From: a bacterium
Lineage (GTDB): Bacteria; Babelota; Babeliae; Babelales; JABCYS01
Reading direction: 5' to 3'
Length of the DNA stretch: 27,579 bases
NCBI GenBank assembly: GCA_027452085.1
Contig: DAIDHG010000009.1
Location: 1-27,579 of the forward strand
Under the pieces are notes generated by a model, which saw nothing but the letters and a program-made list of their open reading frames with translations, was not told the origin of the DNA and ran no database searches. Made by a program: the position numbers and the translations under genes. Below are positions 6,172-27,579 of the stretch, piece by piece (the stretch's first letter is position 1; every line of letters begins with the position of its first letter).

Positions 6172-8736
6172 TTATGCAGCTTTTGCGGGCCCAGTGGTTT
6201 TAATCTTACCCGTGGGCGCTTGTGTTTCTTTTACTACCATCGCTGGCTTTGGTGCAAGAATGTCGCGCACATCAGCGACCATGAGTGTGCCTTGTAGTAC
6301 GAGCTCGTCGGCCAATTTTTTGAGCGATTCTTTATTCTTGCTCAACAGCTGCATCACCTCTGCTTCCGATTGTTGAAGCAATTTCTGAACCTCATTTAAT
6401 TTAGCGTCAGCGGCATCACGAGAGAAGTGCTCTTTCTTAAGCCCTTTAAACACAATCGACTCGGCGATCTGGCGTGCCTGCTCATTGCACTCAGGACGAT
6501 AGCTATAGGCCGTGGCGCCAATCAGTAACTTTTCTGCCACGTAACCGGCCAACAATACTTTGATCTTATTAATCTTTTGTTCAACAGAATCAAAGCCTGC
6601 CGTGTTCATTTTGTGCAAGGTGAAGATATCACCATAGCCAATGATCTTCTTCGGCCCGGTTGTATTTTCAGAATACCAAATGCGTTCTTCGGTTACCTTC
6701 TTATGAATTGGCAACATGGTAACTTTGTGCAGCTCTTCGCCGGTTGGTAACAACTCGTATGCCAATGCCTGGCCAGCCAAGTGGGCGGTAATAATGCTGC
6801 GCTCCTCTTGTGGGATATGCAGATCGCCTTCTACAATCTTCCGCTTAAAGGTATCGATACCATTTTCAAAGCATTCATAGCTCAAGCCAGCGCGATGTTG
6901 CATCGATTTTGATAAGGCATGATTTAAGATGCTGGCAAGATCCCCAAATGAGCAATCTTCCGTCTCTTTTGCTAAACGCTCAAGGTTGATTGATTTTGCA
7001 TTCAGGCGACGACGCACCAGCTCTTTTTCGAAGAATTCACGACGATCATTAAAGGTTGGGTTTTCAAATGGGATGATTTTACCAAAGCGACCCGGCTGCA
7101 ATAACGCTTGGTCGATATGGTCAAGCCTGTTGGTAGCCGCGAGGAAGATCACCTGTTTGCCAGGCTCCTGCGTCATGCCCACCAGGAACTGCTCAAGCAT
7201 ATCGCTGCTGCGGTCTCGTTGTAGATTTAAGAGATCAAGCTCGTCAATAAACACGATGCACGGTGCATACTTTTTGATAACTTCGATTACTTTCTTAATA
7301 CCAACCAGGCGCATTTCGCTTGAGTTGACCTTTAAGAAGGTTAACGGTTTGTTATAACGATGAACCAGTTCACCTGCCAGCGCTTCGGCTAAATAGGTTT
7401 TACCCGTGCGCGTTGGTCCATATAATAAATATCCCTTTTCAATTGCAGTACCAGTTTTTTCAAACATTTCTGGGTTCAGCAAGTATTGAATAACCGGAAT
7501 TAACTCCTGTTTTTGCTCATGTAAACCAGCAATATCGTCAAAGGTGATGCGCGGTACACTGTGCTCTAAGGCACCTTGGATCCAGAGTTGTTCAATAGCG
7601 CTTACTTGCTGTTTCTCATTATTAAAGAGTTCGCCCCATTTGAAGAACTCTTTTGGATCTTTGTAACATGCTTTCCAGCCATTCACGCCATCGGTTATTG
7701 AATCAAAGAATTTTTTGAATGCTAATGGGAGGGTGAACATAAAGAGTAGAGGGATTTTTGCGCGATCCAAAATACCAAACGCCCCCGTACCGGTGCCAGC
7801 AATAATTGGCTTATTTAAATCAAAGGTGCCGGAGTTGGTGAATGGTAATGGGTATGGCGGTGTGCCGATCACATTATCGTCATACCAGCGCACAAACGGA
7901 TTATTTGCAAAGGCAGTACCCAGATCAGAGCTGGCCATATGAGACCATACACCTTCTTGTGCCCCAACCGCTGGCGCCTGGGCAGGAGCCCCGCGGCCAA
8001 ATGCTCGGTATTCTTCCATCACATGCTGTGGCATTGGCTTCATTGCATAGCGTAATATTGAGGCTGCCAGAGTAACTGCTCCTAACGTAAATCCTTTTGC
8101 GTAATAGTTGCCCCGCTTGTTTACACGGCTGAGCCACTGTTTAAATTTCTGGAATTTCGTTTTGCCCAATTCATTCATGCTCAACTCAAGTTGGGCAAAT
8201 GCACGCTCAAAGGCTTGAAATTTACCAATCATATCGCCAATATTGAGCGGTGCTGGCTGTTTTGATTTGAATACAAAGGGGCGTAGATCGTTCAGATCAT
8301 TTTTTACTAAATTAATAAGGTAGGCAATGATTTGTTCATTAAGCTCAAATATCTTGGTTATATCTTCATTCGGATCGGTCGGATTGCAATATTTTTGCCA
8401 GGCAGTTGATACTGATTCGAGCGCCACATGAAATGCATTGAGATGTGGTTTGGCTAACTTAATTTCGCCGTTGCTCACCATGAGATTGAGCGCCATAATC
8501 TTTGATTTTAAGGCCTGTGGAATATGGATATAAGCATTTTCGAAGATTCCTCTATACATAGCCTCAATTTCTGCTTGGCTCGGCTCATAATTATCAGATT
8601 CCAGCTGCGGTAGTTCCGGCTGGTGAGAAGCCGGCTGCGCCATAGGCGTGGCTGGCTTTTGAGTAGCTCGTAGGGGGGTGAGCGGCAATAAACCGACCAT
8701 AATTGTAGACAATAATGCTATTCGTAAGTTCTTCAT
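6172..8736 (-). CDS. FtsH-like AAA+ ATPase with signal peptide and degenerate M41 peptidase domain
   Basis: Walker A GPTRTGKT, Walker B IVFIDELD and SRH AATNRLDHIDQALLQPGRF. M41-like C-terminus (TAHLAGQALA; IKVLLAGYVAEKL) lacks HEXXH. N-terminal signal peptide and two hydrophobic segments. Confidence 0.88.
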   Translation of the reverse strand: MKNLRIALLSTIMVGLLPLTPLRATQKPATPMAQPASHQPELPQLESDNYEPSQAEIEAMYRGIFENAYIHIPQALKSKIMALNLMVSNGEIKLAKPHLNAFHVALESVSTAWQKYCNPTDPNEDITKIFELNEQIIAYLINLVKNDLNDLRPFVFKSKQPAPLNIGDMIGKFQAFERAFAQLELSMNELGKTKFQKFKQWLSRVNKRGNYYAKGFTLGAVTLAASILRYAMKPMPQHVMEEYRAFGRGAPAQAPAVGAQEGVWSHMASSDLGTAFANNPFVRWYDDNVIGTPPYPLPFTNSGTFDLNKPIIAGTGTGAFGILDRAKIPLLFMFTLPLAFKKFFDSITDGVNGWKACYKDPKEFFKWGELFNNEKQQVSAIEQLWIQGALEHSVPRITFDDIAGLHEQKQELIPVIQYLLNPEMFEKTGTAIEKGYLLYGPTRTGKTYLAEALAGELVHRYNKPLTFLKVNSSEMRLVGIKKVIEVIKKYAPCIVFIDELDLLNLQRDRSSDMLEQFLVGMTQEPGKQVIFLAATNRLDHIDQALLQPGRFGKIIPFENPTFNDRREFFEKELVRRRLNAKSINLERLAKETEDCSFGDLASILNHALSKSMQHRAGLSYECFENGIDTFKRKIVEGDLHIPQEERSIITAHLAGQALAYELLPTGEELHKVTMLPIHKKVTEERIWYSENTTGPKKIIGYGDIFTLHKMNTAGFDSVEQKINKIKVLLAGYVAEKLLIGATAYSYRPECNEQARQIAESIVFKGLKKEHFSRDAADAKLNEVQKLLQQSEAEVMQLLSKNKESLKKLADELVLQGTLMVADVRDILAPKPAMVVKETQAPTGKIKTTGPAKAA

Positions 8737-8826: not shown

Positions 8827-10293
8827 ATGAATAAACGCAATATTATTTTGGTTTCTGCCGCTGGTGCAATTCTATTTGTACTCGCAGCGCGCCATTTCCA
8901 GCTCTTTAAGCGGTCTTCGTCGGAAACGCCCTCATACGTTACCATCTCTCTTGATCAGCTCAAAAACAAAAAGAATATTATTGATATAGCCATTATCGGT
9001 TCTGGCCCAGCCGGTTGGAGCGCGGCATTATATGGCGCGCGCCTTGGCAATTACACGGTGGTTATTGATGGCAATCTCCCCGGCGGACAGCTGACTAAAA
9101 CCTCCTTTATCGAGAATTGGCCGGGCTTTAAACGAATTAAAGGATCGGAACTTATGGATCAGCTGGCCTCGCAGGCAAAATCATATGGAGCCGAGGAGCT
9201 TAAGGATATCGTAACCTCTGTTGATCTAGCCTCATGGCCCTACACCATCAAAACCGATGAAGGGCACACCCTTCATGCTGCTGCTCTTATTATTGCCACC
9301 GGTTCCAGCCCGCGTAATACCGGTATTCCTGGTGAGATGGAATTTTATGGCAAAGGGGTGAGCACCTGCGCTATCTGCGATGCACCATTTTATAAAGGCA
9401 AAAATGCCGTGGTGATTGGCGGTGGTGACTCGGCAGCAGAAGAAGCACTGCAACTTGCGGTGTATGCAAAGAAGGTTACGGTTTTGGTGCGTAAAGAGGT
9501 AATGCGCGCCTCGGCAGTTATGCAGCAACGCTTAAAATCTGCGCACAATATAGAAATTCTTACCGATGTTGAGGCCGAAAGAATAACTGGAGTTGACACC
9601 GTAAAAGCGGTAGAAATTCGCAATAAAAAGACCAACGAACTCAAAGTGCTGCAAACCGATGGCTTTTTTATTGCCATCGGCCACCATCCAAACACCGAAC
9701 TGTTTAAAGGAACCAAGCTGCTCAACCCGCATGGCTATGTTATCGTGCATAACCACACGCAAGAGACGCCGATGCCAGGAATATTTGCCGCAGGGGATGT
9801 TGAAGATTCCCGCTATCGCCAAGCTGGTGTGGCCGCTGGCCATGGCTGTGCAGCGGCTATTGATGCTGATCGTTTCTTGCGTGAGGTTGGCCTCACCGGC
9901 AAGTTCAGAGATAATCTGAAAAAGACTGATGCATACTTTTCTGATTTTCTCGTAGCGAGAGCAGAGATCCCAATGCTGCCATCGCTTGAAAGCTTTAATG
10001 AAAAAGTGGTAAGCCAAAAAGGTATCTTTGTGCTGGATTTTACGGGCAAAAACTGCCCAACCTGCAAGCAGCAGTTGCCGATTATCGAGGCAGCAGCAAG
10101 CCGTTTTGCCGATTCAATAACCTTTTATAAGGTTGACGCTGATGAGGCAAAAGATCTTGTTATGTCTTTAAAGGTGCCAAAAGTTCCCTATGTGGTGATC
10201 TTTAAAGATGGAGTTCGCGTGGCAACCTTTAACAAAGTGGTAAGCAAGCACGAATTCTTTGAGCATTTAAGCTCAATATTGAGCGAAGCTTAA
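8827..10293 (+). CDS. trxB: Thioredoxin-disulfide reductase fused to a C-terminal thioredoxin domain, with N-terminal hydrophobic leader
   Basis: FAD motif IIGSGPAG, GGQL, active site CAICD, NADPH motif GGGDSAAEEA and FAAGDV. C-terminal thioredoxin fold DF...NCPTC...KVDAD...VP. Confidence 0.93.
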   Translation: MNKRNIILVSAAGAILFVLAARHFQLFKRSSSETPSYVTISLDQLKNKKNIIDIAIIGSGPAGWSAALYGARLGNYTVVIDGNLPGGQLTKTSFIENWPGFKRIKGSELMDQLASQAKSYGAEELKDIVTSVDLASWPYTIKTDEGHTLHAAALIIATGSSPRNTGIPGEMEFYGKGVSTCAICDAPFYKGKNAVVIGGGDSAAEEALQLAVYAKKVTVLVRKEVMRASAVMQQRLKSAHNIEILTDVEAERITGVDTVKAVEIRNKKTNELKVLQTDGFFIAIGHHPNTELFKGTKLLNPHGYVIVHNHTQETPMPGIFAAGDVEDSRYRQAGVAAGHGCAAAIDADRFLREVGLTGKFRDNLKKTDAYFSDFLVARAEIPMLPSLESFNEKVVSQKGIFVLDFTGKNCPTCKQQLPIIEAAASRFADSITFYKVDADEAKDLVMSLKVPKVPYVVIFKDGVRVATFNKVVSKHEFFEHLSSILSEA

Positions 10294-11482: not shown

Positions 11483-11842
11483 ATGAAGCAACGTCTATTA
11501 TTAGTCGCAGCCTTGTTAGCGATCGCGTTAACAGCGCATGCAGCTGTGAACTTTATGAACACCAGCGATGTGCCGGTGCAAACAGCCAGAACCTATGGTG
11601 GTAAGGCGGATTATAAAATCCGTTCGGTTGCCCGAGAGGAATATCCATCAAAGGCTGTAGCACATGTTCATGAATATGTTGATGATGTGCCGGAATCAGA
11701 AACGCTTTTTGGATGGCATCGCTATCATCATCACTATGGGGATGGTCCATACTGGCGGCGTGGCTATTGGGGAAGGCCATACTATGGGCATCGATACTAC
11801 GGTTATTACCGACCATATTGGCGTCGTCACTATTATTACTAA
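11483..11842 (+). CDS. Secreted protein with Tyr/His/Arg/Trp-rich C-terminal half (119 aa)
   Basis: SD AAGGAG, signal peptide MKQRLLLVAALLAIALTAHA, ends YWRRHYYY. Confidence 0.8.
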   Translation: MKQRLLLVAALLAIALTAHAAVNFMNTSDVPVQTARTYGGKADYKIRSVAREEYPSKAVAHVHEYVDDVPESETLFGWHRYHHHYGDGPYWRRGYWGRPYYGHRYYGYYRPYWRRHYYY

Positions 11843-11863
11843 ACAACACTAAAAGGAGAAATT

Positions 11864-12262
11864 ATGAAGAAATTATTAGCATTTGCAGTTGTACTGCTTA
11901 TTGGCTCAACAATGTTTGCCCCACATGGTGGCGGAGGCGGCGGTGGTCACATGGGTGGTGGCGCTGGTCACGTTGGCGGTGGCCATATGGGTGGCGGCGC
12001 AGGTCATATAGGTGGTGGTCATTGGGGCGGCGGCCGTGGCGGCTGGGGCCATGAGCATGACGGTGGTCGTGGTTATTACGGCGATGGTGGCTTTTACGGC
12101 GGTTGGGGCTGGGGCTATCCATATTATGGCTACGGATATCCATACTATGATGGATACTACGGCGATGATTATTATGATGATTATTACCCAGACTACTACT
12201 ACGACTACGGCCCAGGCGTGAGCGTAGGTGTACCAGGGTTTGGCTTCTCAATTGGTATTTAA
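11864..12262 (+). CDS. Secreted Gly/His- then Gly/Tyr/Asp-rich low-complexity protein (132 aa)
   Basis: SD AAGGAG, signal peptide MKKLLAFAVVLLIGSTMFA, GGHMGGGAGH repeats, a YG/YD-rich block, ends PGFGFSIGI. Confidence 0.85.
   Translation: MKKLLAFAVVLLIGSTMFAPHGGGGGGGHMGGGAGHVGGGHMGGGAGHIGGGHWGGGRGGWGHEHDGGRGYYGDGGFYGGWGWGYPYYGYGYPYYDGYYGDDYYDDYYPDYYYDYGPGVSVGVPGFGFSIGI
11942..12031 (+). repeat. Intragenic 36-bp (12-aa) tandem repeat, about 2.5 copies
   Basis: GGHMGGGAGHVG / GGHMGGGAGHIG / GGHWGG. The DNA copies differ mainly at synonymous positions. Confidence 0.8.
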
Positions 12263-12276
12263 TTGCCACATGAATT

Positions 12277-12301
12277 GGGCCTCGCAGGAGGCCCTTTTTT
12301 T
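12277..12301 (+). terminator. Intrinsic terminator
   Basis: GGGCCTC-gcag-GAGGCCC followed by T7, just after the stop at 12262. Confidence 0.85.
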
Positions 12302-12349
12302 GGCTTTTGATCAACAAGATAGGCTGCTTAACAAAGAGATTTGCTGATT

Positions 12350-12652
12350 ATGAAGAAATATTTCCTATTTCTATTCCTCGCAAGCTCATGCGTTTTTGCT
12401 GTCAGCAAACTAACTGCTGATACCAAAGCCGAAATAAAGGCGCAGGCAAAAGAAGAGCGTAGGCAGCGACGTCATGAGCGCCGTCGTCTGCGTGCGTTAC
12501 AAAACCCCTATTATTATGGCGGGTATCCAAACCTTTGTTTTGGGCCACCATTTGCCTGGGGCTATAGCTACTATGGCAATTATTACCCCTATTACGGCCC
12601 ATATAATAATTGGGGACCCAACTTTGGCCTGAATTTCAACTTTTACCGGTGA
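12350..12652 (+). CDS. Secreted protein with Arg-rich helix and Tyr/Gly/Pro-rich tail (100 aa)
   Basis: ATG 12350 gives the signal peptide MKKYFLFLFLASSCVFA. Contains ERRQRRHERRRLR and ends WGPNFGLNFNFYR. Confidence 0.78.
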   Translation: MKKYFLFLFLASSCVFAVSKLTADTKAEIKAQAKEERRQRRHERRRLRALQNPYYYGGYPNLCFGPPFAWGYSYYGNYYPYYGPYNNWGPNFGLNFNFYR

Positions 12653-12655
12653 TGC

Positions 12656-12988
12656 ATGAAGAAGCTTTTACTTTGTTGCATCACCGTGTTGTTTCTCAAT
12701 GCCCAATTGTTTGCGTATCATGGCGATGCGGCTGCTCAATCTGTTCTGCAATGCCACGGCTGCGATCTCTGTCTTCAAACCGAAGATGGAAATTATTTAT
12801 CCATTTCTCGCGAGCAACTCATACGGGCGCTTCATCAAAGCGAGAACTCGTATTGCGCATCACCATGCACCGAAAAGTGCCTGACTCAAGTATGCCCATG
12901 CCATCATCATCATCGAAAAATACCTGTGTGCGAACACGGCTGTTGCCGATGGACTCGCTGGCGCTACCCGCAGTGGTATTACTTTTAA
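12656..12988 (+). CDS. Secreted Cys/His-rich protein (110 aa)
   Basis: Signal peptide MKKLLLCCITVLFLNAQLFA. Contains CHGCDLC, CPCHHHH and CEHGCC, and ends WRYPQWYYF. Starts 3 nt after the previous stop. Confidence 0.72.
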   Translation: MKKLLLCCITVLFLNAQLFAYHGDAAAQSVLQCHGCDLCLQTEDGNYLSISREQLIRALHQSENSYCASPCTEKCLTQVCPCHHHHRKIPVCEHGCCRWTRWRYPQWYYF

Positions 12989-16227: not shown

Positions 16228-17262
16228 TTACGCATAAAAACCCTTAAAGATTCGTGCTGGTCGAATGAATCTTAGTGCCCAGCTGGGGTCCCTTTTCCCC
16301 TTTCGACGAGCCAAAACAGCCTCAGGATTCTTGAGCTTTTTTTCACGACATTCAAAAATCAATAAGGTGTATGCCAAAAACACGTTCATAAGATGGTTGC
16401 TTTGTGTCTGACGACTTCTGCTCTGACAATCCTTTAACCCCAAGTGTTGTTTGGCTGTTCGAAAAAATTTTTCAATGTTCCAGCGATATCCATACACCTG
16501 CACATGTTTACGAGGTTCTGCTTCGTAATTGCTTACCTGGTACACAACTTGGTTTTCACCATTTCGATTTTCTCGCTTGACGGCAGTAAAATATAATCCA
16601 GAAATACTTCTCCAAGAGCCGCCAACGGTTCTGTATTGTTTTTTTCCATTCATGAGTCCAGCAAAAAACAGGTCGATTCTCAGTGTTTTATCGCCAACTG
16701 TTATTACTCGGTTCGAATGAATACGCATTTCAAATTTTATGCTTCTTTCATTAAGCCACTGAATCAAATCAACTGAAGCATAAAGGCCATCGAGAATAAC
16801 AATTTTTATCGGCATCTCGCGTATAACAGCTAGGATAAGTAGCTTGGCCAAATCAGTTTTTTTGCGATATTCCCCTTCTTCAAGCAGTTCTTTATTCACC
16901 CACAGCAGGTGGTCAACTGGAATCGCCCATTTGCCATCCGTAACCATTGCTACAACTGCGCATAAAGATCGGTAAACCATGTTGCCTGAAGAGTCGTAGT
17001 TATCACTGGTTCCAGCAATGAGTCGAGAATACATTTTTTCGATTAGGGTATCATCGATAATAAGGTAAGCACTTTTAGAGTTTAAGAACTCCGCGGCTAG
17101 CTCAAAAAGCTCTCCGGATGTGGCTGGCGCCGCATTTAGCGTGCGTAACATGCGGTCACCACTGAGACCTAAAAACCGCCCAAGCGACTCGCAATTTTTT
17201 CTAAAGGTGGACGAAACTAAACCGCAAACGTATGCTAATCGTGGTTCGATTTTTTCGAACAT
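16228..17262 (-). CDS. DDE transposase (IS701 family / IS4-like)
   Basis: Motifs IIDDT, ILDGLY and the Y-x2-R-x3-E-x6-K signature (YGYRWNIEKFFRTAK). SD AAGGAG. The stop codon lies inside the terminal repeat. Confidence 0.92.
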   Translation of the reverse strand: MFEKIEPRLAYVCGLVSSTFRKNCESLGRFLGLSGDRMLRTLNAAPATSGELFELAAEFLNSKSAYLIIDDTLIEKMYSRLIAGTSDNYDSSGNMVYRSLCAVVAMVTDGKWAIPVDHLLWVNKELLEEGEYRKKTDLAKLLILAVIREMPIKIVILDGLYASVDLIQWLNERSIKFEMRIHSNRVITVGDKTLRIDLFFAGLMNGKKQYRTVGGSWRSISGLYFTAVKRENRNGENQVVYQVSNYEAEPRKHVQVYGYRWNIEKFFRTAKQHLGLKDCQSRSRQTQSNHLMNVFLAYTLLIFECREKKLKNPEAVLARRKGKRDPSWALRFIRPARIFKGFYA

Positions 17263-20044: not shown

Positions 20045-20100
20045 GTGATCCTTTATTTGGACAAATATTTTAGTGTGGGCGTTACGTTACCAAAGAAACT

Positions 20101-20137
20101 AAAAACCCTCAATACTTCATGAAGTATCGAGGGTTTT
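20101..20137 (-). terminator. Intrinsic terminator downstream of rpmF
   Basis: Minus strand AAAACCCTCGATACTTC-at-GAAGTATTGAGGGTTTTT, a long hairpin with one G-U pair that ends in a U-run. Confidence 0.65.
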
Positions 20138-20159
20138 CTTGTACACGGAAATTTGTGTG

Positions 20160-20169
20160 NNNNNNNNNN
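20160..20169. other. Assembly gap (10 N)
   Basis: Run of N characters. Confidence 1.
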
Positions 20170-20517
20170 GCCGCCCGGTAGGCCTCGAAGCGCTCGCTGG
20201 CCGTTGTTATCTCCCGCAGGTCTGCCAGGAAGCCGATCCGCTTGTGGCCCCCTGCTGCCAGGTGCTTCACCGCCGCTCATACGTTTTGCGACTGCTTGCT
20301 CGCGAGCGGTACGTGTTTGCACTCGTTTTGCTGTGCGTTCAGCCTTGGTAACCATGATCTTGCGTCCTTTATAGTGCCCGCAATTTAAGCACACTTGGTG
20401 TGGCATAATTGCTTCTTTGCACTGCCCGCAGGTAGCAAGCGCTTTTACCTTAATGCCTTTATTTGCAAAGCGGGAATCTCGGCGGGCGCGGGAGCGTTTT
20501 CGTTTAGGTACTGGCAT
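20170..20517 (-). CDS. rpmF: 50S ribosomal protein L32 (Zn-ribbon form) with a long C-terminal extension; 3' end lost in the gap
   Basis: MPVPKRKRSRARRDSR, CGQC...PHQVCLNCGHYKGR. The frame stays open into the N gap. Confidence 0.93.
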
Positions 20518-24446: not shown

Positions 24447-24827
24447 TCAATCAAATAATGTGTATGAAACAACTGCTGAAAGCGCCAATAGTAGCGCAAG
24501 TTTGATCGAAGTGCTCAGTTGCGTTCGATTTGCGACCGTCTGCGTCTCATGTACTTCATGAACGCGCTGTGCTTGATTTGCAAGACGGCTTTCCAGAGAT
24601 TTAATTTGTTGCGAGACCAGATTCACCTGCTCTTCGATTGCTAAAAAATGTTGCTGTTGCATGTACAAAATCTGAGCCATGATTTCATCCATGGGCTGAC
24701 TCGACTTCTTTTCTTCATCATTATAGGCGGTCAGGCTTGAAGAAAGCTTTGCTGGCTTTTCGCCCGCGTGTAGCAGCGCTGGTAAACCTATTAATATACC
24801 GATGCACATTTTTAAACCATTAATCAT
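24447..24827 (-). CDS. Hypothetical coiled-coil protein with signal peptide and C-terminal TM
   Basis: Start uncertain (24848/24827/24809). Signal-like IGILIGLPALLHA, a Gln-rich heptad region and C-terminal LALLLALSAVVSYTLF. Confidence 0.65.
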   Translation of the reverse strand: MINGLKMCIGILIGLPALLHAGEKPAKLSSSLTAYNDEEKKSSQPMDEIMAQILYMQQQHFLAIEEQVNLVSQQIKSLESRLANQAQRVHEVHETQTVANRTQLSTSIKLALLLALSAVVSYTLFD

Positions 24828-25184
24828 TAGTAATATCCAATCACTCATATGGTGGTTTTTATTATGCTCAAGCTTGCATGAACAAAATTCGATGCGCAAG
24901 CGTGTTTTGAAATAGATGATCGAATTATTAGGTAAACGGCGTGCCTCTAAACTAGATAATGTAAAAAAGCCGGCAAACAACCCCATTTTTCTTATAGTCA
25001 AAACAAGATGATCTTTTGGTAAAAAACCGTCGTTTCCTGTCCATACGTGTGGTTTTAAAGCTGTCGCAAAGTGAACGGTTACAGATTGTATTGGCACGAA
25101 GTAGATACAGGCCCGCTCTTTTATATACCAGCCAAATCGGGTACATTTATTCAATAGACGGATCTGGTTGTCGGGAGATGATGA

Positions 25185-27416
25185 ATGTATAAAAGTTTTC
25201 TTACTCTATCCCTTTTGTGTGCCATTGCTTTTCCTGTCGTTGCTAGCGATGATAATACTATGGGGCCAGAAGAGCCCTCAGTTATTGCGCCAGACGCAGA
25301 ATTGGTGATTCTACTAGATGATGAAGCTGTAGGTGATGGTGCCTATCAAAATGAAGAAACCGATGATGAACAATCCAGGGTGCCCAAGACCACCAAGAAT
25401 GCCCTTTTCTATGCCATCGCCGCAGGTGATATCGATGCCGTAAAAGCGGTCATTTCGTATGATGACGAACTGATCAATCGAGGCTATCAGTTTCAAGTGT
25501 CTGATCCGGCATTTCACGGCTTCCATGCTCGCCCAAGCAATGGTGATACACCGCTCATCTATGCAGTAAAAACTTTTATTGATTTACAAAAAGCCTATGA
25601 GTCTCGAAAATTTTCTGATGAATTTACGGTGCAAATGGCCATTGATCATCGCCTGAGTATTGTTTCCGAGCTTCTGTTTCATCCTAAAGCTGCCGTCGGC
25701 GCTGAAAATGCACAAGGGCATACCGCAGCATCACTCGCTGCTCAAGCCGGTCTATCCCGTCTTGCCAATATGATCGCCACTGGTTCTCATGTGGCGCCTA
25801 AGCAAGCTGAGGTGTCCAACTATAAAGCACGATTGGCCAAGCTTGATGTGTCAGATGAAATTAGAAAAAAGATTGCTAGTGAAATCGATCAGTTAGCTCA
25901 AAAGCATCCTGCTGAAAAAAGCATACAAATAAACTACGTAAATGCGCTCCTTGATTTGCCGTGGGATAAGGCGGCCGATACAACGGTGAGTATTCCTGCG
26001 GTTGCTGCATCACTTGATGCAGAGCATTTCGCCTTAAAAAAGGTTAAAGATTCTGTGCTGGATTATTTGGCCGCGTCGGCGGTATCACGAGGCCATGGTA
26101 AAGGTAAAATTATTTGCTTAGTTGGCCCGCCAGGTACGGGCAAAACATCTATTGCCGAATCAATTGCAAAAGGGATGAAGCGCCCGTTTGCGCGCGCAAG
26201 CCTTGGTGGAGCACATGACGAGGCAGTGATTCGTGGTCACAATAAAAGTTATATCAGTGCAAATGTCGGTGAGATTTTGAAAGGTTTGATTCAAGCAAAA
26301 GTTAAAAACCCTGTCTTTTTGCTTGATGAAATAGATAAGGTTGGCACGGGTCATTATAATGGTAACCCGGTTTCTGCGCTGCTCGAAGCGCTTGATCCAG
26401 CGCAAAACAGTTCATTTGTTGATCGGTACATCGAAATTCCTTTTGATCTTTCTCAGGTGATTTTTATTGCCACGGCAAATTCCCGCGATACCATCCCCGT
26501 GCCGTTGCTTGATCGTCTGGAAATTGTTGAAGTGCCTGGCTATTCAATAGAAGAGAAGGTGCGCATTGCCACAGATCATATCATCCCAAAAATGGTAAAA
26601 GATGCCCAATCAGATGAGATGAGCTTTGCCGTTTCTGAAGAGGTGATTCGTGCCATTATTAAAAATTACACATTTGAAGCCGGGGTGCGCAAGCTCACTC
26701 AGCATCTTAAAACACTCTTTGCAAAAACGGCTCGTGAATTTTTAGATAAAAGAACGGTGGCCACCATCACCCCTGAAAATCTTTCCGAGTATCTTGGCCC
26801 CAAAAGAAGATTGGCGCGTGTATCGCAAAAGCCTGCAGTTGGTGTCGTTAACTGTTTATCCGTCAGAGCAGGTTTTGAGGGCGCAACCAGTATTCTGGAA
26901 ATTATTCTTACGCCCGGTAAAGGCGCCTTGAAAGTATCGAAAGTATTGGAAAACGACAGCAACAATGCCGCTGAGATTGCCTTGGCTTATGTGCGCGCAC
27001 ATGCGTCTGAATTAGGCATTTCAGCTGAGCAGTTTGCTAAAAATGACATTCATATACATAAACCTGGCATCGGCCATGTTGATGGCCCATCTGCCGGTAT
27101 AGCCAATGTAACCGCCCTTGTTTCCGTATTTACCAATCGCCCATGCGATCCAGGCTACGCCATGACCGGTGAGTTGAGTCTGAGAGGCCGCGTGATGGCA
27201 ATTGGTGGTTTGAAAGAAAAGATCTTGGCTGCCAAACGTGAAGGCATTTATAAGGTTATTATCCCGCAGGAGAATGAACCCGAGCTCAATGAGTTTAAAT
27301 CGCTCATCGAAGATATGGAGATCATCCCGGTCAGTGATGTGCGCGAAGTATTAGATCGCGTATTGCTGCCGGCAGAAGCTATCACTCGCAAGCCATCGAA
27401 GAAAAAAGGAAATTAA
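25185..27416 (+). CDS. lon: Lon-family ATP-dependent protease with signal peptide and ankyrin-like N-terminal domain
   Basis: LPW, Walker A GPPGTGKTS, Walker B LLDEIDK, ALLEALDPAQN, PLLDRLE, catalytic DGPSAG and IGGLKEK. N-terminus MYKSFLTLSLLCAIAFPVVA followed by ankyrin-like motifs. Confidence 0.92.
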   Translation: MYKSFLTLSLLCAIAFPVVASDDNTMGPEEPSVIAPDAELVILLDDEAVGDGAYQNEETDDEQSRVPKTTKNALFYAIAAGDIDAVKAVISYDDELINRGYQFQVSDPAFHGFHARPSNGDTPLIYAVKTFIDLQKAYESRKFSDEFTVQMAIDHRLSIVSELLFHPKAAVGAENAQGHTAASLAAQAGLSRLANMIATGSHVAPKQAEVSNYKARLAKLDVSDEIRKKIASEIDQLAQKHPAEKSIQINYVNALLDLPWDKAADTTVSIPAVAASLDAEHFALKKVKDSVLDYLAASAVSRGHGKGKIICLVGPPGTGKTSIAESIAKGMKRPFARASLGGAHDEAVIRGHNKSYISANVGEILKGLIQAKVKNPVFLLDEIDKVGTGHYNGNPVSALLEALDPAQNSSFVDRYIEIPFDLSQVIFIATANSRDTIPVPLLDRLEIVEVPGYSIEEKVRIATDHIIPKMVKDAQSDEMSFAVSEEVIRAIIKNYTFEAGVRKLTQHLKTLFAKTAREFLDKRTVATITPENLSEYLGPKRRLARVSQKPAVGVVNCLSVRAGFEGATSILEIILTPGKGALKVSKVLENDSNNAAEIALAYVRAHASELGISAEQFAKNDIHIHKPGIGHVDGPSAGIANVTALVSVFTNRPCDPGYAMTGELSLRGRVMAIGGLKEKILAAKREGIYKVIIPQENEPELNEFKSLIEDMEIIPVSDVREVLDRVLLPAEAITRKPSKKKGN

Positions 27417-27579
27417 TGTTGAAAAAATTAATGCTCATATCATTGGTTGGGGTCGCTGCCCAGGCAGAGGTTCCCCTTGTTTCATCCTTATCTCGTTCAG
27501 GTGATCTAACAGCCACTGAGCAATTGGCCATTGGTATTGTTGCCTCATCACTAGAAAAGGTTGAAAAAGCATTGCACAA
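27416..27579 (+). CDS. Secreted protein, partial (runs off the window)
   Basis: ATG overlaps the lon stop (TAATG) with SD AAGGA. Reads MLKKLMLISLVGVAAQA-EVPLVSSLSRSGDLTATEQLAIGIVASSLEKVEKALH... Confidence 0.7.
   Translation, partial: MLKKLMLISLVGVAAQAEVPLVSSLSRSGDLTATEQLAIGIVASSLEKVEKALH

Follow-up and report, generated by a model that had tools for sequence, protein, structure and literature searches.

An open reading frame (ORF) at 25185..27416 (+) encodes a 743-aa Lon protease in which an ankyrin domain stands in place of the substrate-binding N-domain. It lies in the window analysed here, a stretch of 27,579 nucleotides (contig DAIDHG010000009.1, positions 1 to 27,579; assembly GCA_027452085.1). 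The genome is 983 kb in size and 93% complete and belongs to the phylum Dependentiae/Babelota. The ankyrin-Lon is real and conserved, it has a previously unreported partner gene directly downstream, and its leader makes export likely. The domains, the intact catalytic residues, the gene pairing and their conservation are observed directly; where the protein goes and what it binds and degrades we infer.

Three ankyrin repeats, the second carrying a conserved helical insertion, occupy aa 71-200 (25395..25784, +) according to Pfam, a fold model and a structure search. Ank_2 matches this copy at residues 69-129 (E 1.6e-5, 25.8 bits), under its cut-off of 27.3; the cut-off is passed by two of the three protein-search homologues scanned (P0008 and P0010) and missed by P0017 and by the copy in genome G085. 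The N-domain model, which was built from an 11-sequence alignment on the P0010 copy, has a predicted local distance difference test score (pLDDT) of 96.8. Compared with ankyrin repeats (VIA), it gives a Z of 13.9 and a root-mean-square deviation of 1.4 Å over 87 aligned residues; the top rows are all ankyrins, as are the top Foldseek matches. The repeats are thus tandem helix-turn-helix units with ankyrin packing in both the model and the structure search. Mean identity within the family is 40% for this domain. A profile search with the N-domain against 1.84 billion representatives is dominated by long ankyrin arrays; single-stretch, full-length matches among the best 150 rows are P0012, P0020, P0015 and a 676-aa protein, which has the length of the G085 copy.

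LON_substr_bdg is absent among the best 25 of the 40 Pfam families listed for ankyrin-Lon, and it is present in both canonical Lons of the same genome (E 2e-38 and 1.8e-33). LonA matches to ankyrin-Lon start at about residue 206; in place of the LON substrate-binding domain and coiled coil of LonA, the protein has the ankyrin domain at aa 71-200. An earlier note on this DNA had read ankyrin-type repeats in place of the N-domain, and the predicted fold and the missing Lon domain bear this out. LonA without its N-domain degrades disordered substrates but not damaged folded ones (PMC8087443). A new N-domain or a partner would therefore set specificity.

The rest of the chain resembles LonA. A helical LonA segment at aa 201-262 (25785..25970, +), which aligns to LonA from about residue 250 and forms three helices in the model, is followed by a LonA-type AAA+ module (25971..26759, +) and a Lon protease domain (26760..27365, +). 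AAA+ motor and Lon protease in one chain define the Lon family, and both are recovered here by Pfam and Foldseek: Lon_C (528-727, E 4.8e-52), AAA (310-448) and Lon_lid are above their cut-offs, and LonA structures are the top matches to the full-length model (pLDDT 69.7). From the family alignment and the residue roles in PMC8503904, the motor contains Walker A K320, pore-loop Y356, Walker B D381/E382, pore-loop-2 Y391, Arg finger R444 and sensor II R502; the protease contains a Ser636-Lys679 dyad with the Pro before Ser that marks the A type. K320, D381/E382, R444, R502, Y356 and the dyad are intact here and in 12/12 family members. The AAA+ module and Ser-Lys protease recognised earlier are therefore confirmed, and a dead or crippled motor is rejected because all motifs are kept.

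Spacing and subfamily signatures agree with this assignment. Lys lies at Ser+43 in 12/12 members, leaving the 42 intervening residues of the Lon-family dyad (PMC9569914). Pro precedes Ser in 11/12, including this copy, and is replaced by Asn in G085; the PK of the LonA consensus PKDGPSA reads HV in this copy, and the active site is of the A type. The distance from Walker A Lys to Walker B Asp is 60 residues in nine of the 12, 59 in two and 67 in one, and there is no membrane insertion, as in A-type ATPases. TIGR00763 scores 541.5 bits and does not reach its cut-off of 608. By its sequence, ankyrin-Lon belongs to the Lons and shares its type of motor and active site with LonA, but not the N-domain.

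Two further features of the Lon chain had been singled out, an altered pore loop and a basic tail (RKPSKKK). The alteration of pore loop 1 is genuine in that RRT is lost in 12/12 members, but the Tyr (Y356), which in LonA grips the substrate (PMC8503904), is kept in 12/12. The short tail (27366..27416, +, with the stop) is present but not conserved: five of its last 12 residues are K/R here, zero to four in the other 11 members and seven in the cytoplasmic Lon on contig C21. Since it is not conserved and is stronger in a cytoplasmic Lon, the tail is rejected as a nuclear or targeting signal.

An in-frame TGA abuts the ATG of the Lon ORF and a GGGAG site lies 7 nt upstream; the leader is therefore the true N-terminus. 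Aa 1-20 (25185..25244, +) are likely to form a Sec-type signal peptide, with cleavage probably after Val-Val-Ala. Leaders were called by our own n/h-region heuristic and by inspection. The lenient form of the heuristic is positive in 10/12 family Lons; the two misses are explained by a wrong start in G085, where a leader is visible from an upstream GTG, and by a contig cut at the 5' end. All 11 family members with an N-terminus thus have a leader; an acidic stretch comes after it, and there is no other transmembrane segment. The lenient heuristic is also positive in 6/31 canonical Babelota Lons and 2/21 other Lons. The linker at aa 21-70 (25245..25394, +) is acidic and disordered: aa 22-63 contain 15 D/E and no K/R, mean family identity is 13% and pLDDT is below 50. 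A Met26 occurs just past the leader in this copy. The earlier reading of a signal peptide holds, as the leader is conserved in character across the family, and the acidic linker and all motifs quoted at that time are found in 25185..27416. Judged from these features, ankyrin-Lon is very probably exported, and both it and its partner would cross the inner membrane by Sec.

The clade of ankyrin-Lons comprises 12 sequences: the studied copy, nine protein-search homologues, one from a family genome and one from a metagenome contig. Identity is 41-66% for the first nine full-length homologues, and the 12 form one group in two trees (both quick trees; SH-aLRT 99). The full-length architecture is present in 4/4 genomes of its own family among 261 phylum genomes searched; no other match covers the N-domain start among the best 150 of 496 in those genomes. 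A second protein search with the full alignment gives no new family member among 120 listed, a scan of named genomes with the single protein gives no match, and a metagenome scan yields one family member among 62 loci. The same genome encodes two canonical Lons, one on contig C5 and one on C21, each with LON_substr_bdg; a separate canonical lon had been called for, and ankyrin-Lon as the only Lon of the genome is rejected.

Conservation varies along the protein. Identity to the genus relative is 14% in the leader, where the n/h/c pattern is kept, 61% in the ankyrin domain, 70% in the motor and 77% in the protease. Nonsynonymous divergence (dN) of ankyrin-Lon is 0.26 at a saturated synonymous divergence (dS) of about 2.4, and dN of the ankyrin domain is 0.28; canonical Lons have a dN of 0.05-0.09 at a dS of about 2, also saturated. 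Ankyrin-Lon evolves faster but under purifying selection. It is found as a single copy per genome, before lepA in 5/5 loci and near gyrA in 3/4 genomes. Single copy, fixed position and purifying selection are not the pattern of a fast-diversifying host-recognition module. Promoter and terminator scans of the window return 6 and 2 sites against 5.8 and 3.5 expected, with none at the gene start. Between the Lon gene and gyrA there is a divergent ORF (24447-25154, -) with a coiled-coil-like middle and a hydrophobic C-terminus; it has no Pfam family above cut-off and is not found at the same place in G083 or G085.

The partner gene starts at 27416 and overlaps the Lon stop (TAATG). Its signal peptide and first ankyrin repeat are encoded at 27416..27579 (+), where the contig ends, and the rest at C76:2974-3435 (-), with lepA next; the two contigs have no end overlap, so the join is drawn from synteny. 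In G083, G084, G085 and L055 a complete orthologue is found 0-10 nt downstream; the L055 one, which was not part of the profile, scores E 3.6e-36 against it. In all five loci with context the partner is directly downstream of Lon, with a gap of 0-10 nt or an overlap. It consists of a leader and the same split ankyrin domain as Lon (hhalign 98.2%, E 4.9e-14; ankyrin clusters 0.95), with a hydrophobic hairpin as its insertion. Two hydrophobic 17-mers are found in this insertion in five orthologues (Kyte-Doolittle values 0.94-2.19), and the Lon insertion peaks at 0.49-1.26. Strong matches to the partner are confined to the same four family genomes of the 261; weak matches (E 3e-6 or worse) occur in five others. 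G083 also has two more distant ankyrin-hairpin paralogues away from the Lon gene (L127:1462-2100 and L130:1-654).

A complex prediction for the Lon N-region and partner of G084 scores 0.57, and the best of three controls scores 0.00. This is weak support: of 157 solved pairs 116 reach the mark, as do 2 of 215 mismatched ones, but among those at 0.60 or under are only 18 of the solved pairs and both of the mismatched. At least 80% of contacts recur between runs, and the partner pLDDT is at least 69. Given the paired paralogue and the weak predicted binding, the ankyrin part is more likely a means of docking the protease to a membrane partner than a device that selects host targets by itself. 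Ankyrin-Lon had been described as a self-contained degrader; this is doubtful in view of the conserved, adjoining and co-transcribed ankyrin-hairpin gene.

Lons with leaders are also found elsewhere in the phylum. We searched 52 of the 261 genomes, most of them chosen for high Lon_C counts, and fetched 24 Lon loci. Among 38 Lon frames, 10 are canonical by their N-terminal motif, three are cut at the 5' end and were set aside, and 25 are extra Lons; with a stricter leader window, 0/10 canonical and 24/25 extra Lons are positive, a split that itself rests on the N-terminus and is thus not independent of the leader count. Leader-bearing Lons occur in 18 genomes of five other families; in total, at least 22/261 genomes and 6/21 families have one. 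Their N-termini differ, comprising multi-repeat ankyrins (five genomes), the original Lon N-domain (two), two or three AAA+ modules, or short unknown segments; the variation of the N-domain that the earlier note proposed to survey does exist across the phylum. Some lie in arrays beside the canonical lon. The extra Lons fall at several places in the quick tree, none of them inside the studied clade.

Several of these loci have features of their own. L136, L137, L138 and L139 (G078, G080, G081) are tandem arrays of at least three leader-bearing Lons, which in G078 and G080 lie beside the canonical lon. The same three genomes (89-95% complete) are among the 11/261 in which no DegP-family match was found, possibly a single event; G113 and G191 also have no such match but are 61-66% complete. 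L148:3467-5914 (G029) and L149:7383-9779 (G032) encode leader-bearing Lons in which the LON substrate-binding domain is kept and which cluster with the canonical Babelota Lon; they are likely an early stage of the same export trend. Fusions of leader, multi-repeat ankyrin and Lon outside the studied clade are found at L143, L145, L147, L156 and L157 (G206, G193, G215, G191 and G214, respectively). The G206 fusion has two AAA+ modules and the G215 copy is split into two frames in the assembly.

TLC (ATP/ADP translocase) and BamA families are present in 4/4 family genomes, as are three secretins and two F-family proteins of type II secretion (T2SS-F). The secretins of this genome are at G000:C5:14469-14960, C54:23-400 and C54:4496-4972; in each family genome two are long (frames of about 770-920 aa) and adjacent. 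Two secretins are reported in the genomes of PMC4776705. No match to the export gate of type III secretion systems (T3SS) and flagella (PF00771) or to VirB4-type proteins (PF03135) is found in 4/4 family genomes. Dependentiae described so far live as intracellular parasites in protists and possess ATP/ADP translocases as well as components of type II secretion (PMC4776705, PMC6561590); the secretion components belong to the core of the phylum (PMC4776705). Signal peptides are carried by 44% of all Chromulinavorax proteins and by 78% of its ankyrin proteins, and vesicle budding occurs in the food vacuole (PMC6561590). Leader-like starts in the present genome (283/759 long ORFs) are close to the former share.

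Ankyrin-Lon had been assigned to the host on the argument that the periplasm lacks ATP. This does not follow. Export by Sec ends in the periplasm by default, and an ATP importer must let host ATP cross the periplasm; since the genome encodes proteins of the translocase family, the missing-ATP argument does not force a host location. Single copy, the position before lepA, purifying selection and the conserved bacterial partner favour a job in the envelope. We give a periplasm fed by host ATP rather less than an even chance, and the host side, taken over two models, a nearly even one.

Our working model is a two-gene exported proteolytic module tethered at the periplasmic face of the inner membrane, a tentative reading of the sequences. 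Lon and partner would be made together and cross the inner membrane by Sec. The partner, a split ankyrin domain with a hydrophobic-hairpin insertion, would sit in the membrane, and the ankyrin domain of Lon may dock on this paralogue, as the weak prediction suggests. Lon would then assemble as a ring and use ATP to unfold and degrade proteins at that membrane. The simplest site would be the periplasmic face of the inner membrane, on the path of host ATP to the ATP/ADP translocases. The mode of action would be like that of machines of the mitochondrial intermembrane space (the i-AAA protease and the ankyrin-AAA+ protein Skd3/CLPB) and not that of a free effector.

A number of observations weigh against this model. 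Partner context covers five of the 12 Lon sequences. The score of the predicted complex is weak, two paralogous ankyrin domains may reach it through their similarity, and the prediction gives no interface. In the five orthologues, the stretch of 15 residues ahead of the hairpin contains 3-5 K/R, compared with 1-3 in the loop. This is a poor fit to an insertion in the inner membrane that leaves both ends periplasmic; the hairpin of G084 is, moreover, no more than mildly hydrophobic. Replacement of DegP by ankyrin-Lon is rejected for this family, as a DegP-family match is found in 250/261 genomes and the protease is kept in 4/4 family genomes. Elsewhere in the phylum exported Lons are patchy, have several origins and form tandem arrays, which looks effector-like. 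Finally, with so many leader-like starts and three secretins per genome, much of the exported proteome probably leaves the cell.

The same pair may instead be secreted onward by type II secretion or vesicles, so that the hairpin partner enters a vacuole or organelle membrane from the host cytosol, much as an inclusion-membrane hairpin of chlamydiae does, and recruits Lon, which would use cytosolic ATP to remove host proteins from that membrane. The secretins and T2SS-F proteins, the type II core of the phylum and the signal-peptide shares and food-vacuole vesicles of Chromulinavorax (PMC4776705, PMC6561590) would all serve such a route, the basic flanks of the hairpin and the repeated, patchy origin of exported Lons fit it too, and the pairing itself supports it as much as the periplasmic model. 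We consider it unlikely: no injection route was found by PF00771 or PF03135 in 4/4 genomes, a six-subunit Lon would presumably have to exit as monomers, and the single-copy, housekeeping-like synteny comes with no sign of diversifying selection. Somewhat less probable still is the stand-alone effector of the earlier note, whose ankyrins would bind host targets and feed them to the protease, the neighbour being unrelated or a competing ankyrin protein. The ankyrin fold does replace a substrate-recognising N-domain (PMC8087443), fusions of a leader, ordinary multi-repeat ankyrins and Lon occur in five genomes of another family, and the secretins and T2SS-F proteins may allow host delivery; the ATP argument and the basic tail lend it no support, as the tail is no conserved targeting signal. 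The strict pairing with a paralogue that is weakly predicted to bind, and an ankyrin domain under purifying selection at one copy per genome, speak against independent action.

Cytoplasmic location is the least probable alternative, and a very improbable one. The leaders would then be unused for export, and the protein would be the third Lon that stays in the cytoplasm or faces it, held at the membrane by the partner in the manner of LonB or FtsH. The cytoplasm certainly contains ATP, an anchor on that side would agree with the basic flanks of the hairpin, the lenient heuristic does score some canonical Lons, and Met26 lies just past the leader in this copy. Yet a positive n-region, hydrophobic core, small-residue cleavage motif and acidic region occur in both genes of every complete member, the stricter window separates canonical from extra Lons, and Met26 is not conserved in the family; the conserved leader thus argues against a soluble cytoplasmic location. 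Inclusion-membrane hairpins of chlamydiae, the positive-inside rule and the i-AAA protease form the general background to these models. On a wider scale, it is conceivable, if rather unlikely, that Babelota export complete ATP-driven degradation machines into the host. Ankyrin-Lon, anchored on a host-facing membrane by its ankyrin-hairpin partner, would then be one of a phylum-wide, repeatedly evolved set of exported Lons with N-domains swapped for different targets (split ankyrin, multi-ankyrin, original Lon, extra AAA+ rings).

Ankyrin-Lon shares with LonA (endopeptidase La; MEROPS S16, TIGR00763; T. thermophilus 7p6u, B. subtilis 3m6a, M. taiwanensis 7fd4) the AAA+ motor and A-type Ser-Lys protease at aa 206-730, with all ATPase and protease motifs, the 60-residue Walker A-B spacing and 42 residues from Ser to Lys. 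Unlike LonA, which is described as cytoplasmic or organellar (PMC9569914), it has a signal peptide, an acidic linker and an ankyrin domain in place of the N-domain and coiled coil, as well as a co-transcribed membrane-type partner, and it misses the TIGR00763 cut-off. Other Lon subfamilies, as defined in PMC9569914, do not accommodate it. LonB and LonBA have a membrane anchor in the AAA+ module, with Asp before Ser in LonB and an 82-residue Walker spacing in LonBA, whereas the spacing here is 59-67 with Pro before Ser. LonC has an inactive ATPase and a helical hairpin extension; here Walker A/B, Arg finger and sensor II are intact in 12/12 and there is no insertion.

Mitochondrial Skd3/CLPB resembles ankyrin-Lon in combining a targeting sequence, an ankyrin domain and an AAA+ motor in one chain, between two membranes (PMC7343390). 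Skd3/CLPB-type clusters are feature neighbours at 0.86, which serves as a lead only. Its motor is of the ClpB type and without protease, whereas ankyrin-Lon has a Lon-type motor and Lon_C; the likeness would be one of convergent architecture. Archaeal LonB, firmicute LonBA, FtsH and mitochondrial i-AAA (YME1L) are ATP-dependent proteases at membranes, as ankyrin-Lon may be through its partner. In contrast to them, it has no anchor inside the Lon chain, and the anchor would be a separate ankyrin paralogue; the bacterial tethered AAA proteases face the cytoplasm. With ankyrin effectors (Legionella AnkX/AnkB; Dependentiae ankyrin proteins) it shares the ankyrin fold, an export signal and the intracellular lifestyle of the phylum. 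It differs from them in having three repeats split by an insertion, in being single-copy, conserved and fused to a processive ATP-dependent protease, and in that the family genomes have no T3SS or VirB4-type match.

Literature searches, which covered titles and abstract openings and few subscription papers, turned up no bacterial Lon that is exported or fused to ankyrins. E. coli Lon is reported to act on c-MYC in host cells. 'Lon' as a whole word is absent from the available text of PMC4776705 and PMC12172432, though such proteins could appear in the annotation tables of PMC4776705 and PMC6561590; lon is listed as cytoplasmic in PMC6561590. The available text of a 91-genome survey of Lon architecture contains no occurrence of 'ankyrin' (PMC2605481). 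The nearest case in those searches is Lon that dead cells release (PMC11825663).

Lon subfamilies described to date are found in the cytoplasm, in organelles or on an anchor that faces the cytoplasm, and ATP is held to be missing from the periplasm. If the periplasmic model is true, ATP-dependent quality control takes place in the periplasm of an energy parasite, in convergence with the mitochondrial intermembrane space (Skd3, i-AAA); if the host side is true, a bacterium ships a processive protease to its host. Either outcome would be a first for bacteria. Being small, the two-gene module makes the question of periplasmic ATP in energy parasites directly testable without culturing the organism.

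Other genes of this genome also have leaders. The window contains an FtsH-like gene (6172-8736, -; AAA and weak Peptidase_M41) with a signal-peptide-like leader; between this and the motor there is no more than one additional segment of mild hydrophobicity. Its metal-binding motif is HLAGQ compared to HEAGH in the FtsH on C2, and its product is probably an exported or oddly anchored, protease-dead FtsH paralogue. The ORF at 8827-10293 (+) encodes a thioredoxin reductase-thioredoxin fusion (CAIC and CPTC centres) with a basic hydrophobic leader; this would be another cofactor-dependent enzyme of normally cytoplasmic location that has a signal for export or anchoring. Outside the window, G000:C26:4677-8303 (+) (L161) encodes a protein of 1209 aa with a leader and four tandem AAA+ domains; C18:13394-15235, a candidate leader-bearing ATPase by motif, is rejected as it has no Pfam match at 1e-5. 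Four small leader-bearing ORFs lie in a row at 11483-12988 (+) of the window; they are of low complexity and rich in Gly, His, Tyr or Cys. The window also contains a DDE transposase (16228-17262, -) and an ORF (20053-20517, -) with a short run of unknown bases (X) in the frame overlapping a ribosomal L32-like gene.

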